A stretch of 64,000 nucleotides of DNA from a bacterium (GTDB taxonomy: Bacteria; Fidelibacterota; Fidelibacteria; Fidelibacterales; Fidelibacteraceae). Made by a program: the position numbers. The DNA lies in assembly GCA_963676395.1 (NCBI GenBank), contig OY781066.1:96001-160000 (forward strand), in the 5' to 3' direction. Of the stretch, positions 30,001-33,000 are shown in pieces; the first letter of the stretch is position 1, and each line of letters begins with the position of its first letter.

Positions 30001-33000
30001 ACAAAGTAATATGTCTCGCACCGATATTGGGACCTTTCTCATGATTCAGTATAATGGCTGCTTTTATTACTGAATCATAATTATTAAAAGGCTCCCCCAT
30101 TCCCATGAATACGATATTTGATATTTTCTTTTCCGATAATCTTTTTACCTGAATAAATTGTTCAACTATCTCAGCCGTCTCTAATTTACGAAGCAATCCC
30201 ATTTCACCGGTTTTACAAAAAGCACAGCCCATAGCACATCCGACTTCGGAGCTAACACATAGAGTAAAATGATTTCCCGACCGTAATAGTACCGTTTCGA
30301 TAGAATGACCATCATAACATGTAAACAAATATTTTTCAGACCCATCCTCTTCTGATATATTGCGTTGGGAAAGCTCTAATATGTTTAAAGTACCCAATTC
30401 ATCAATTTTATCCCGAATCTTTTTTGAAATATTTAGCATCTCAACACTTGATGAAACACCTTTATCAAACAACCATTCAAATATCTGTCTTCCTACAAAT
30501 GGTTTTAGTTCGTTCTCAACTGCCCAGGCTTGCATTTCTTCATAACTGTAGTTTTTCAATGTATTTATCATGTGTGTAAGATTGGAAATTTATGAGTATT
30601 ATACAAGTAAATACTTAATGCAATAGACTGAAATCATATTCCAAGCAATAGAGTAATTAAAATTTGATCATTGAATATTTTCATACAATTTTTCGAGTTA
30701 TAGGATATATGACACACAGCTTTTTGCGTTCTTTGGCTTTATTTCACAAGCAAAGCTTTTCCTTGCATTTTATACCCTAAACCAATAATTTTCAAGGAAT
30801 TCTATAAGGAGCAGTTATGAACACCGCCGATCTAATGCAGAGTGTCTCTGAAAAATCGGAATTATCAAAATCCGACACAAAAGAATTATATGAGATCCTC
30901 ACAGATATTATTCATGAGAAATTCTCATCAGAGACCGGAATTGTTATCCCGCAATTCGGTACGTTTAGAATAAAAGAAAAACAAAGCAGAAAATCCTACA
31001 ATCCGGCAAGCAAGGAATATGTACAATTGCCAAAAAAACTACTCCTCTCCTTTACACCGGCAGCACAATTAAAAGAAGATCTCAGATAAGGAGCATCTAT
31101 GACTGACAAGATAACATATCAACAACTCATAGATGAATTCACTGAAAAATCAGGTAGAACAAAAGCCTTTTCCGACAGATTCATCAAAGATATTTTCACC
31201 AGCATTCAAGAAGGATTGCGTAAGGACGAGAATGTAAATATCAAAGGTCTGGGAATTTTTAAACTACAGGAAGTGGCCGAACGGGAAACTCTAAACCCTA
31301 AAACCGGTCGCTCGGCTCTAATTGAAGCACATAAAAAAATCGTATACCGACCTGAAAAAGCGTTACGGGAAAAAGTCAATGCCAAATATGCCGATCTGGA
31401 AGCAAAAGTAATCGGTAAAAAAGAAGACATAAAGCCAGCAGATGAAAATAAAAGTGATAGCGAAAGCATTCCAACCTTTCCTAAACCAGAGCTTAAACCT
31501 GAACCTGAGATGAAAGCTACTCCGGTTAATCATAAACCCATCACCTCTTCTATTACCAATGCCGATGGCAGTATAGATATTCGAAAGATATTTGGTGGTG
31601 ATGATCTTCCAAGTGATGATGATGTAAAAAAAGAGAACCCTGCTTTTGACAACACGCAAGAAAACGATGATATCGAACAACATATTCAACATGTAAAAAA
31701 CAATGGTCCTCAAACACTTGATGAGTTAATTAATATTACAAAAGGGAGCAATGAAGAGAAGCCTGTTGAGGAAGAAAAACCAGGGGAAAAAGTAAATATT
31801 ACTTTTGAAGGTGATACCGCACCTCAAGTTTTTGGTGATAATATTGACGAACCTGTCAAAGAGGAAGAACCCGATCTTTCTCAAAACCTACCATGGATAA
31901 AATCTCAGGAAGAAGAACAAGAACAATATCAAGAAGGGGCTAAAATATCTCCTACTTTCATTATAGAAAAAAAACAGAGACGCTCTCCATGGCGTTGGTT
32001 ATTTCCAATTATATTGGTCATACTTATTCTTGCTGTTATCTACTTTGTTCCAAATAATTCACTCAAGATCGAAGATATTGCATTTTGGAAAAACTGGAAT
32101 AAAATCACCCTGTTTGAAAGAAAAGATAAAGATCAACAGTCTACTACTTCAAACGATTTAGATAAAGAGAAAGAAATTTCAGCCACTCTTAACAAAGATA
32201 AGGATAAAGAAAGCGATAATAAGCTCAATAATATTTTCTTAAAGCTTAAAGAACGTGGTGAAAATACAGCTAAGCCCAAAGATGAAAATGAAAAACAAGT
32301 TACAAACATTACCGAAGCCACACAAATTACTCAGGCTCCAGCTGATGAAAAAGTCTTAATCCACATTGTTCAACCCGGTAATACTTTATGGGGATTGTCA
32401 GATCATTACTATAAACGCAGTAGCTTATGGCCTAATATATACAGAAAAAACATTGAAGTCCTCCCCACTCCGGACTTTTTACCTTTAGGAAGAGAACTGC
32501 TTATTCCCGAATTAAACGGTGATTCATATGAACTCTCAAAAGCAGATTCTGCAAGAATAGCACAAGGCTATTACCTGGCTTATACGGCATATAAAAAATA
32601 TGATGAAGCGAAGGCTAAAGGCTATTTGAATATGGCTAAGAAATTTGGGACAACCATTAAATAGTTAATAATTGATAATTGGAAGTTAAGAATTTGGCGC
32701 AATTTATTGCGCCTTTTCCTTTTAGAAGAGAGAAAAAAACAGAAATAATTCCAATATATTAATATCATTTTGAATGATTAAAATTTATACTTGTTTATAC
32801 TAACCTAATTTATTTATATTTGCAGGCTTTTGATTAATATCAATGCTCGGGGTGTAGCGCAGCTCGGTAGCGCGCTTCGTTCGGGACGAAGAGGCCGTAG
32901 GTTCAAATCCTATCATCCCGACTTCAAACAAAACCCATCGTACGATGGGTTTTGTTTATATGGATTCCATACCGACTGCAATCATAAATACTATATATAC

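Follow-up and report, generated by a model that had tools for sequence, protein, structure and literature searches.

A stand-alone HU gene and a gene for a predicted membrane-spanning HU-LysM protein in Fidelibacterota: a candidate link between DNA and the cell wall

Described Systems That Bring DNA to the Cell Envelope

To our knowledge, fixation of the chromosome to the cell envelope has been described in few model systems, in which the connection is made through the indirect adaptors HubP-ParA1, RacA-DivIVA and PopZ-ParB. The gene analyzed here, located in a 64,000-nucleotide stretch of a Fidelibacterota genome (the window), specifies a protein in which an HU domain and a LysM domain are separated by a transmembrane (TM) helix. 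The relevant passages of Burroughs, Kaur, Zhang and Aravind (2017; PMC5499826) describe, from Bacteroidetes sequences, proteins composed of a single HU domain, a disordered segment, a TM helix and a LysM domain, encoded in an operon with a stand-alone HU, and propose that they tether the nucleoid to the envelope. The fusion protein resembles this form in all these traits: the HU domain is N-terminal, a disordered segment and one TM helix follow, the LysM domain is C-terminal, and the gene shares an operon with a stand-alone HU. The architecture, the paired HU and the tether idea are therefore already published, and the survey's finding, which proposed a nucleoid-to-wall tether or a muropeptide sensor, repeats a published architecture and hypothesis. 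The locus is a further member of the group, in Fidelibacterota, a phylum that is not named in the main text of PMC5499826. It differs from the Burroughs group in that its HU domain falls below the cut-offs of the Pfam families HU-CCDC81_bac_1/2 and scores as classical Bac_DNA_binding. In addition, a helical hairpin that follows the LysM domain and a replacement of HU by DUF1508, both described below, do not appear in the relevant passages of that paper.

By analogy, HubP of Vibrio would be the closest working counterpart of the fusion protein. In the part of PMC8789113 that deals with HubP of Vibrio cholerae, the protein tethers a region of the chromosome to the envelope and has a periplasmic LysM domain that determines its location, a single TM helix and a highly acidic cytoplasmic region. 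The order of the parts is reversed, since the LysM domain is N-terminal in HubP/FimV and C-terminal here. HubP also holds DNA indirectly through ParA1 and has repeats and a TPR end but no HU domain, whereas direct contact with DNA is proposed for the fusion protein. With this reversed order, and with no TPR or FimV match at E ≤ 0.01, the fusion protein does not belong to the HubP/FimV family.

Burroughs et al. cite, in the same passages, Noc and RacA-DivIVA of Bacillus subtilis as parallels (PMC5499826). The likeness lies in the transport of chromosomal DNA to the membrane or the pole. Noc belongs to the ParB type and carries an amphipathic helix, and RacA has DivIVA as its binding partner; as far as we know, a TM helix, a wall-binding domain and an HU fold are absent from both Noc and RacA. 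The layout is also that of the ToxR/CadC regulators, with a cytoplasmic DNA-binding N-terminus, one TM helix and a periplasmic C-terminal domain. These regulators combine an OmpR-type winged helix with a sensor domain. Here the N-terminal domain is instead an HU fold, which needs a second subunit, and the spacers are long and variable. FtsN, DamX and other bitopic SPOR proteins share the N-in layout and the wall-binding C-terminal domain but differ in the fold of the latter. SPOR takes the place of LysM in the two-HU proteins of Bacteroidetes covered in the passages of PMC5499826 cited above, while the three SPOR matches in the genome under study are not located at HU genes.

The Operon and the Domains of Its Products

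The survey's finding had described an open reading frame of 521 codons preceded by a plain HU gene, and both were recovered (Table 1). The fusion gene is uninterrupted and starts with ATG, 5 nt downstream of AAGGAG. As judged from the 9-nt gap, the two AAGGAG sites and the terminator-like hairpin, the two genes form one operon. Overlaps of 1 to 8 nt between the HU gene and the fusion gene occur in other families and are in keeping with translational coupling.

Table 1. Features of the HU/HU-LysM operon; positions are those of the window.
Feature	Position	Strand	Basis
Ribosome-binding site AAGGAG of the stand-alone HU gene	30806..30811	+	sequence reading
Gene of the stand-alone HU (P0002, 90 aa), which would be the soluble subunit	30817..31089	+	Bac_DNA_binding, 74.2 bits (Pfam)
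Ribosome-binding site AAGGAG of the fusion gene; shares bases with the HU stop codon	31088..31093	+	sequence reading
HU-linker-TM-LysM-hairpin fusion gene, 521 aa (P0001)	31099..32664	+	open reading frame and domains
HU/IHF-type domain, residues 6-94, cytoplasmic (predicted)	31114..31380	+	Pfam, 75.7 bits
Acidic low-confidence linker, residues 96-285	31384..31953	+	net charge -24; pLDDT mostly <60
Basic juxtamembrane motif (residues 286-299) and single TM helix (residues 300-318)	31954..32052	+	charge, hydrophobicity
Periplasmic spacer (predicted), residues 319-418	32053..32352	+	pLDDT 34-52 over most of its length
LysM domain, residues 419-472	32353..32514	+	Pfam, profile, AF2 model, structure alignment
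Two-helix hairpin 3' of LysM, residues 481-516	32539..32646	+	models and conserved block
Terminator-like hairpin with T-rich tail, 32 nt past the stop codon	32696..32723	+	consensus scan; weak alone (3 such sites in the region vs 1.7 expected)

The N-terminal domain of the fusion protein, hereafter the anchored HU, matched Bac_DNA_binding (PF00216) with E 3.4e-21 against a cut-off of 22.4 bits, over profile positions 2-90 of 90, in agreement with the extent and E-value reported earlier. It aligned without gaps to IHF (PDB 2iif, E 7e-14) and HU (1hue, E 1.2e-11), and its pLDDT in the model of the whole protein was 89-95. The stand-alone protein, or free HU, gave a gapless match to the HU of B. 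stearothermophilus (1hue, E 2.2e-9), likewise aligned to IHF with no gap, and retains the Asn-Pro at the tip. The conserved proline at the tip of the HU/IHF beta-arm inserts into DNA. At least 90% of the 39 homologues of the anchored HU carry Asn66-Pro67, and Pro63 is invariant across 26 free HUs. Alignment to B. stearothermophilus HU showed that the anchored HU keeps one of the three arm arginines (Arg62), with Gln, Val and Leu in the remaining positions, and that the free HU retains Lys, Lys and Arg at three arm positions. With Arg62 as its only arm arginine, the DNA affinity of the anchored HU on its own may be low.

The anchored HU did not reach any of the NCBIfam equivalog cut-offs for IHF alpha/beta or HU alpha/beta. 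IHF alpha was the best match of both HUs (53 and 49.3 bits against a cut-off of 111), and HU-beta gave 43.2 bits against 157. Neither operon protein matched HU-CCDC81_bac_1 (PF18174, cut-off 26 bits) or HU-CCDC81_bac_2 (PF18175, cut-off 35 bits) at E ≤ 1, and none of the 39 fusion homologues matched these families at E ≤ 0.01. When the whole genome was searched, PF18174 returned nothing at E ≤ 10, and PF18175 gave 13.4 bits for the fusion gene, below the 21.7 bits of a canonical HU. Some relatives are nearer to these families, namely the second HU of P0171 (29.2 bits) and the free HU of locus L051 (23.5 bits to bac_1). By these scores the HU domain is a classical HU (Bac_DNA_binding) and not a Pfam HU-CCDC81. 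The genome encodes two further canonical HUs (102 and 100 bits). At E ≤ 0.01, no family besides HU, HU-HIG and LysM was found in the fusion protein or its homologues.

A single TM helix preceded by basic residues and an acidic linker had both been reported, and both hold. Residues 300-318 are the sole hydrophobic stretch (Kyte-Doolittle 2.75), and the 14 residues before it carry a net charge of +4. In family f1, to which this genome belongs, the juxtamembrane motif PTFxIExKKxxSxWRW is conserved. The linker differs in length and composition between homologues and measures 27-201 aa in 40 proteins (median 76), the maximum being that of the protein studied here; the periplasmic spacer measures 49-108 aa in the same 40 proteins. 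The net charge is higher before than after the TM helix in 39 of the 40, and the 15 residues before it contain more K+R than the 15 after it in 33, an equal number in 5 and fewer in 2. By sequence reading, no signal peptide precedes the 300-residue N-terminal part. The N-in/C-out topology thus holds up, and the charge bias places the LysM side outside the cytoplasm in this prediction.

The LysM domain had been reported at 23.2 bits, a value that was reproduced on the last 120 aa alone (PF01476, E 6.6e-5), while the whole protein scored 18.9 bits, below the cut-off of 20.9. LysM was matched at E ≤ 0.01 by 36 of 39 aligned homologues (best 4.8e-7), and a profile of 43 C-terminal modules compared with the PDB found Kbp (7pvc, E 1.7e-10) and TsaP (3jc8, 1.7e-8). 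An AF2 model of the C-terminal module (pLDDT 89.3, pTM 0.83) has the strand-helix-helix-strand core of LysM (E10-14, H21-29, H32-41 and E57-61 in model numbering) and aligned to LysM structures with Z 7-8.3. A Foldseek search with this model returned nothing at E ≤ 0.001; the top rows were nonetheless LysM domains. Among the top matches were the wall- or chitin-binding LysM domains of TsaP, NlpC/P60, LytE, SafA and Ecp6, and LysM proteins of phage and injection-system baseplates also ranked high in the structural search. The assignment is borderline for the single protein, and firm at the level of the profile and in the AF2 model. Kbp (YgaU), a cytoplasmic potassium-binding protein, has the solved LysM that is nearest by sequence profile; in the structural alignment, 64 of its residues superposed at rmsd 2.0 (Z 7.8). 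It consists of LysM and BON and, unlike the fusion protein, lacks a TM helix, an HU domain and the hairpin. With the nearest solved LysM found in a cytoplasmic K+ binder, the LysM fold by itself is no proof of wall binding.

A two-helix hairpin always follows the LysM domain in this family and contains the conserved block DSARIAQGYYLAYxAYKKY. Its helices were predicted at H72-90 and H94-109 of the C-terminal model (pLDDT 86-95) and at H481-498 and H503-516 in the whole-protein model. A wide structural search with the hairpin (model residues 70-112) gave generic helical matches and no known counterpart, and no PDB sequence match extended beyond position 67 of the C-terminal profile; the hairpin is therefore left without a fold name. 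Packed on the LysM domain, the hairpin could alter the LysM ligand.

Distribution, Pairing and Replacement of the HU Domain

The survey's finding had counted matches in 29 of 101 genomes of the phylum. A wider sample bore this spread out, with a match in 79 of 401 genomes, including 18 of 21 in genus g1. The HU-TM-LysM order is conserved in four families of the phylum (f1, f10, f15 and f25) and in one Bacteroidota MAG, which makes it improbable that the gene arose by chance. The MAG has the same operon, with the HU gene directly upstream, and its C-terminal module matches the profile built here. Evidence of spread outside the phylum comes from this MAG (one locus, found with the single-protein query P0119), one NCBI name and PMC5499826. 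A stand-alone HU gene lies directly upstream of the fusion gene in 31/31 judgeable loci (of 32 intact HU-type genes). Other neighbors are conserved within the genus only (tRNA-Pro or tRNA-Ala downstream), and so give no functional hint.

A tree was built from 67 HU domains, consisting solely of operon pairs and the paralogues of the genome under study. The free HUs formed one clade with support 100/99, with the exception of one of the 32, and all 32 anchored HUs were on the other side. The order of the families is identical on both sides. By these results, the anchored and free HUs are an ancient, co-inherited pair of lineages. The row L043_free, among the anchored HUs, has a branch length of 4.76 and was taken as a wrong start or trimming of the open reading frame and not as biology.

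The caveat had been raised that in 14 of 26 matching open reading frames the part before the TM helix did not match an HU profile. These cases are accounted for by the DUF1508 proteins of family f9 and by unrelated proteins of f14, f18 and f23. Low sensitivity of an HU profile of this kind is probably behind part of them: the profile built from anchored HUs missed three free HUs (L036, L038 and L041), which were recovered by Pfam. The weak matches of f14, f18 and f23 were considered as family members and rejected; these are LysM proteins of a secreted or lipoprotein-like kind, whose start resembles a signal peptide and whose N-terminus, as read by eye, resembles a metallophosphatase. They were excluded from every family count. 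Two other arrangements were seen. P0171 has two HU domains fused to the same C-terminal module, and P0005, on a 2-kb contig, combines DUF2155 with the same C-terminal 76% and may be a misassembly.

In family f9, DUF1508/YegP replaces HU ahead of the same TM-LysM-hairpin module, and all 9 loci have a stand-alone DUF1508 gene 10-13 nt downstream of the fusion gene. The module was thus seen with HU and a free HU in f1, f10, f15, f25 and the Bacteroidota MAG, and with DUF1508/YegP and a free DUF1508 in f9. DUF1508/YegP (UPF0339) is a widespread fold. In the portion of the literature consulted, this fold also functions as a dimer, and our literature search returned no paper combining DUF1508 with LysM. 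We tentatively raise the possibility that the TM-LysM-hairpin module serves as a transferable anchor in the envelope and was fused, on two or more occasions, to one subunit of a small dimeric nucleic-acid-binding protein, the other, soluble subunit being encoded next to it.

A Proposed Half-Anchored HU Dimer and Competing Explanations

A complex of residues 1-100 with the free HU was modeled with a score of 0.70 (runs 0.67, 0.70 and 0.72); of 3 controls, all of them unrelated proteins, the best scored 0.00. Among solved complexes, 116 of 157 attain this mark, as do 2 of 215 mismatched pairs. Contacts agreed in at least 97% between runs, and the pLDDT of the partner was at least 80. Since the dimer structures of HU and IHF are already solved, the pass denotes likeness to them and is not proof that this pair binds. 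The model does not separate a heterodimer from a homodimer.

The explanation we favor, with somewhat better than even confidence, is that the operon makes a half-anchored HU-type dimer that bridges DNA to the envelope through a wall-binding LysM end. The dimer would pair a soluble HU subunit with a partner held in the inner membrane. In this partner the HU domain would lie in the cytoplasm and be connected to the single TM helix by an acidic, flexible linker roughly 200 residues long; beyond the membrane, a flexible spacer of some 100 residues would span the periplasm and bring the LysM domain, backed by the two-helix hairpin, to the peptidoglycan. The two beta-arms of the dimer would clamp and bend DNA as in HU and IHF, and a stretch of chromosome would be fastened at a place in the envelope set by the wall-binding end. 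DNA binding, a heterodimer in preference to a homodimer, peptidoglycan binding and a role in chromosome placement or segregation are what we infer from the architecture; our literature search found no experiment on any member of the family. The genome encodes ParB and the three SPOR proteins mentioned above; the known functions in segregation and at the septum therefore show no gap that would call for the fusion protein. Within the earlier two-sided reading, the nucleoid-to-wall tether is the better supported part, and the muropeptide sensor found no support.

The sensor idea had drawn on a dependence on foreign muropeptides, which in the relevant passages of PMC11652737 is shown for one isolate and inferred for class AB16 only. 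As a membrane one-component regulator, the protein would sense muropeptides or the state of the wall through LysM and alter the bending of specific promoters by a cytoplasmic HU/IHF-like dimer. We regard this as improbable. The layout is of the ToxR type (N-terminal DNA binding, one TM helix and a periplasmic ligand end), and the best NCBIfam match of both HUs, albeit far under the cut-off, is IHF alpha, a site-specific bender. Sensing of outside muropeptides would also make sense in a family in which MurB_C was found in 0 of 32 genomes, and in a genome that likewise lacks MurB_C and has no murA above the cut-off. However, the module is carried by families f10, f15 and f25, in which MurB_C is present in 9/9, 9/9 and 16/16 genomes, and was not found with the query used in the MurB-poor families f5, f12 and f2. 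A link to wall auxotrophy was therefore rejected at the level of families, a comparison among non-independent relatives to which no statistic was applied. Families with and without MurB, and the Bacteroidota MAG, carry the module alike. The regulator also has no apparent signal path, with about 100 and about 200 low-confidence residues of variable length (49-108 and 27-201) flanking the TM helix, and no linked target genes, as the neighbors differ between genera. It is similarly unlikely that the protein is an envelope scaffold whose HU fold serves protein-protein contacts instead of DNA. The passages of PMC5499826 on two-HU forms and eukaryotic CCDC81 propose such contacts and contend that the group has been moving away from binding DNA; the loss of two of three arm arginines in the anchored HU and the two-HU form with the same C-terminal module point the same way. 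Against this, both HUs are classical Bac_DNA_binding domains (75.7 and 74.2 bits) and not HU-CCDC81, both lineages preserve the proline that intercalates, the free partner retains Lys, Lys and Arg in its arm, and the same passages anticipate that the single-HU form encoded in an operon binds DNA (PMC5499826).

We give little credence to a membrane sink, in which the anchored subunit would retain the free HU and set the amount that reaches the nucleoid, perhaps with release by cleavage of the linker. The strict linkage and overlap of the two genes, the confident interface of the predicted dimer and a long exposed linker that would be accessible to proteases would all suit it. It leaves the conserved wall-binding module unexplained, as a TM helix would suffice; the two other canonical HUs of the genome and the deep clade of the free partner, expected of a dedicated subunit and not of a general nucleoid protein, also argue against it, and there is no linked protease gene. 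An equally slight chance is given to a C-terminal module that, in place of peptidoglycan, binds some other ligand or protein of the periplasm, for example an ion, as Kbp does, a component of the outer membrane or a second copy of itself. In its favor, Kbp provides the nearest solved LysM, the hairpin is specific to this family and lacks a known match, and baseplate LysM proteins rank high. On the other side, the module is predicted to be periplasmic and Kbp is not, the other top matches are the wall- or chitin-binding LysM domains listed above, and the wall-binding SPOR occupies the same place in related proteins according to the passages of PMC5499826 already cited.

If the half-anchored dimer is correct, it would use HU to bridge DNA and the wall directly and would represent the simplest link of this kind. 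New with respect to the published group are the recognition that the operon is a deep pair, inherited together and present outside Bacteroidetes in Fidelibacterota, HU domains that appear from their sequences to be still DNA binders, and the conserved extra hairpin on the wall-binding end. The second fold able to replace HU is a further addition and provides a concrete functional lead for the DUF1508 family. If the swap is like-for-like, the half-anchored heterodimer would be the working unit, and DUF1508/YegP (UPF0339) would act on the nucleoid.

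Domain organization and topology of the fusion protein

The fusion gene has 521 open codons, starting with an ATG that is preceded at 5 nt by AAGGAG. The figures that the survey had given for its product were all reproduced, and the observation of an HU domain, one transmembrane (TM) helix and a LysM domain in a single chain proved to be real and well described. Residues 6-94 are a full-length HU/IHF domain (Pfam, E 3.4e-21, 75.7 bits) that aligns without gaps with the HU of B. stearothermophilus and the IHF of E. coli. The linker carries a net charge of -24 over residues 96-285, and the sole hydrophobic stretch, residues 300-318 (Kyte-Doolittle 2.75), is preceded by KKQRRSPWR, the net charge of residues 286-299 being +4. 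For LysM, whose Pfam cut-off is 20.9 bits, the whole chain scored 18.9 and the last 120 residues alone 23.2. LysM was matched at E<=0.01 by 36 of the 39 aligned homologues, and a profile of 43 C-terminal modules matched the solved LysM domains of Kbp (7pvc, E 1.7e-10) and TsaP (1.7e-8). On these sequence comparisons, the LysM assignment is borderline from the window's protein alone and becomes firm once its relatives are included.

The AlphaFold model of residues 410-521 (pLDDT 89.3, pTM 0.83) has a strand-helix-helix-strand core, after which two long helices form the hairpin. A wide structural search with this model returned LysM chains at the top (Z 7-8.3), and the best Foldseek rows were also LysM, all of them short of E<=0.001. 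When the whole protein was modelled, confidence was high for the HU domain (pLDDT about 90), the LysM-hairpin end (93-97) and the TM helix, and poor, mostly below 60, at residues 109-293 and 320-414. The variable linker contains a conserved Phe-Gly island at residues about 155-170 ('IFGGDD', with 'xVFGE' in relatives) and a helical patch of marginal model confidence at residues 186-216; the island may be a short binding motif.

Topology was measured on 40 family proteins, each of which has one TM; a second hydrophobic stretch in locus L008 was attributed to N in the DNA sequence and rejected. Lys plus Arg, counted over 15 residues on either side of the TM, were more numerous before than after it in 33 of the 40, equal in 5 and fewer in 2, and the net charge was higher before than after the TM in 39. 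The cytoplasmic linker ranges from 27 to 201 residues, that of the window's protein being the longest, and the periplasmic spacer from 49 to 108. An acidic linker is peculiar to the close relatives of the window's protein; in others the linker is proline- and lysine-rich.

Spread of the module and surroundings of the operon

A word-based search gave 40 proteins, every source-named one being called HU family or nucleoid DNA-binding protein; the organism, where given, was a Marinimicrobia or Fidelibacterota MAG. Residues 298-521 (TM-LysM-hairpin) matched in 79 of 401 genomes of the phylum, distributed among families as shown in the table. Weak matches in f14, f18 and f23 were unrelated secreted LysM proteins and were left out.

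Matches to the TM-LysM-hairpin query in families of Fidelibacterota (f1, the window's own; single-sequence query, so that zero counts do not prove absence)
Family	Genomes matched	Type	Genomes with MurB_C
f1	23/32	HU	0/32
f9	14/30	DUF1508	12/30
f10	6/9	HU	9/9
f15	2/9	HU	9/9
f25	9/16	HU	16/16
f5	2/26	weak LysM-only	2/26
f12	0/4		0/4
f2	0/2		0/2
f7	0/38
f11	0/37
f16	0/44
f19	0/66

Fifty loci were examined by script. The intact gene was found in 32 (f1, f10, f15 and f25), a non-HU N-terminus in nine, all of f9, and broken copies in two: in L013 the HU part (187 aa) and the TM-LysM part (220 aa) are separated into two overlapping frames, and L021 is interrupted by a TAA. In L018 and L019, of genus g3 of f1, a tandem paralogue with TM, spacer and LysM-hairpin and without HU lies right after the fusion gene. 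A profile search covered 1.84 billion representatives, and its best 150 rows were taken: 71 were new and matched through LysM and tail, 4 more of this kind were already aligned, and 75, for the most part multi-LysM proteins, were excluded. The N-termini of the 71 were HU in 53, DUF1508 in 1 and short with neither in 17. One cluster includes an NCBI entry whose name refers to a Bacteroidales bacterium, and a Bacteroidota MAG contig has the same operon, with an HU of 97 aa whose gene shares 8 nt with the fusion gene. P0005, a 536-aa protein from a 2-kb metagenome contig, has an N-terminal DUF2155 (102.9 bits) joined to a region that matches 76% of the window's fusion protein, C-terminal module included, at 60% identity; P0005 may be a genuine fusion or an assembly error.

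Features in the window and in related loci (L numbers)
Feature	Position	Strand
Free HU gene	30817..31089	+
Fusion gene	31099..32664	+
Phe-Gly island	31560-31610
Hairpin with T-rich tail, downstream of fusion gene	32696
tRNA-Pro(cgg) gene, downstream of operon	32848-32922	+
HU-family ORF	52145-52507	+
RelA/SpoT-like ORF	50011-52158
1169-aa ORF	24501-28010	-
Split fusion gene	L013:965-2121	+
Interrupted fusion gene	L021:1483-2645	-
Tandem paralogue	L018:1291-1851	+
Tandem paralogue	L019:472-1209	+
f9 example pair	L023:1420-2499 and L023:1227-1484	-

In all 11 scanned loci of genus g1 (L002-L016) a tRNA-Pro(cgg) gene lies just 3' of the operon, on the operon's strand in some (L011, L014 and L016, as in the window) and reversed in others. 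In g3 it is tRNA-Ala(ggc) (3/3 loci), and none of the 10 loci scanned in other families has a tRNA just downstream. Besides the operon pair there are three HU-family matches in the genome, two of which score as canonical HU (102 and 100 bits). The HU-family ORF located farther along the window encodes 120 aa (73 bits to PF00216); its neighbours, by eye, we take to be a RelA/SpoT-like ORF and a small YqgF/RuvX-type resolvase-like ORF. Also by eye, the last 80 or so residues of the 1169-aa ORF resemble the C-terminal sorting domain of type IX secretion.

Pairing of the anchored domain with a stand-alone partner

The free HU gene (90 aa, Pfam 74.2 bits) is separated by 9 nt from the fusion gene downstream, and the AAGGAG of the latter overlaps the stop codon of the former. 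Upstream DNA was sufficient to judge in 31 of the 32 intact fusion genes, and all 31 are preceded by a stand-alone HU ORF (28 identified by our own profile and three more by Pfam at 47-52 bits), with its end between 11 nt upstream and 56 nt downstream of where the longest fusion ORF starts. In a tree of 67 HU domains (98 columns, many forks unresolved), one clade unites 31 of the 32 free HUs with support 100/99, and all 32 anchored HUs fall on the other side, that split being weak (70/82). The outlying free row, L043, has a branch length of 4.76, probably a trimming fault. The order of families is identical on both sides, with the Bacteroidota pair nested within each. On this evidence the free and anchored HUs are an old pair that was kept together as two co-inherited lineages.

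Anchored HUs keep the Asn-Pro of the beta-arm tip almost without exception, and free HUs keep it throughout. With respect to the arm arginines of B. stearothermophilus HU, the anchored domain retains only the middle one, and the free HU retains Lys, Lys and Arg at three arm positions. When residues 1-100 were modelled in complex with the free HU, the score was 0.70 (best of three controls, 0.00), with at least 97% contact agreement between runs and a partner pLDDT of at least 80. Of 157 solved complexes 116 attained this mark, as did 2 of 215 mismatched pairs. Because HU and IHF dimers had already been solved, this pass shows likeness of the modelled pair to such dimers, and a heterodimer is indistinguishable by it from homodimers.

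In nine f9 loci (L023-L031) the TM-LysM-hairpin module is preceded by one DUF1508/YegP domain (five proteins, Pfam E between 3.5e-9 and 1.9e-6), and in all nine a stand-alone 60-aa DUF1508 ORF lies 10-13 nt downstream of the fusion gene (nine of nine by our own profile, two confirmed with Pfam at 39-45 bits). In the passages cited here, DUF1508 forms homodimers from single domains and pseudo-dimers from tandem ones (bioRxiv 10.1101/2024.11.21.623966), and the dimer has been compared by one group with PC4/Whirly single-strand binders (PMC12065111). Its solved relatives are UPF0339 proteins without known function, and no paper on DUF1508 joined with LysM was found in the literature searched. The replacement of HU by DUF1508 supports the picture of an anchored subunit with a soluble twin, and hints that DUF1508 may act on nucleic acid.

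Published architecture and proposed functions

Burroughs et al. (2017, PMC5499826) described, in the portion cited here, bacterial HU proteins with a disordered segment and then a TM, fused C-terminally to SPOR or LysM, the single-HU forms typically lying in a predicted two-gene operon with a classical-type stand-alone HU. Their reading is restated in the cited part of a 2025 preprint (10.1101/2024.06.24.600358). The window's operon has every architectural feature that they list; the main text names neither Marinimicrobia nor SAR406, and no experimental work on such a protein was found in the literature searched. The Pfam models HU-CCDC81_bac_1 and bac_2 matched neither the fusion protein nor the free HU at E<=1, nor any of 39 homologues at E<=0.01; genome-wide, bac_2 gave the fusion gene 13.4 bits (cut-off 35), below the 21.7 of canonical HU. 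Relatives come nearer: the free HU of the Bacteroidota MAG scores 23.5 bits to bac_1, and P0171, which has two HU domains and shares the C-terminal module, 29.2 bits to bac_2, from its second HU. P0171 (597 aa, metagenome) has a very acidic stretch between its HU domains, then the TM and LysM-hairpin end. Since the clade-named models say no and relatives come nearer, the fusion protein is assigned by its predicted architecture to the published type, and its place in the HU-CCDC81 sequence clade is left open.

The survey had offered two functions, a nucleoid-to-wall tether or a one-component muropeptide sensor in a lineage dependent on foreign muropeptides. Such dependence, in the passages cited from PMC11652737, was shown in one isolate and inferred for class AB16. 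The window's genome has four clustered Mur ligases (C1:282-291 kb) and one Mur_ligase_M match elsewhere; MurB_C was not found in it, nor murA over the cut-off, the sole match scoring 90 bits against 392.7. MurB_C was found in 283 of the 401 phylum genomes versus 0 of 32 in f1, and the context given by the survey fits the window's own family. However, the operon also occurs in the MurB-bearing f10, f15 and f25 and was not found, with a single-sequence query, in the MurB-poor f5, f12 and f2, which leaves the sensor unsupported. In addition, the spacers on both sides of the membrane are long, variable and modelled with low confidence, and therefore a signalling device is disfavoured. Judged from the sequences, a putative nucleoid-to-wall tether is the best reading of the fusion protein, although it is not new, having been published in 2017. 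What is added here is the extension of this architecture to Fidelibacterota, the conserved hairpin after LysM, evidence for co-inheritance of the two HU lineages and the DUF1508 variant of the anchored module.
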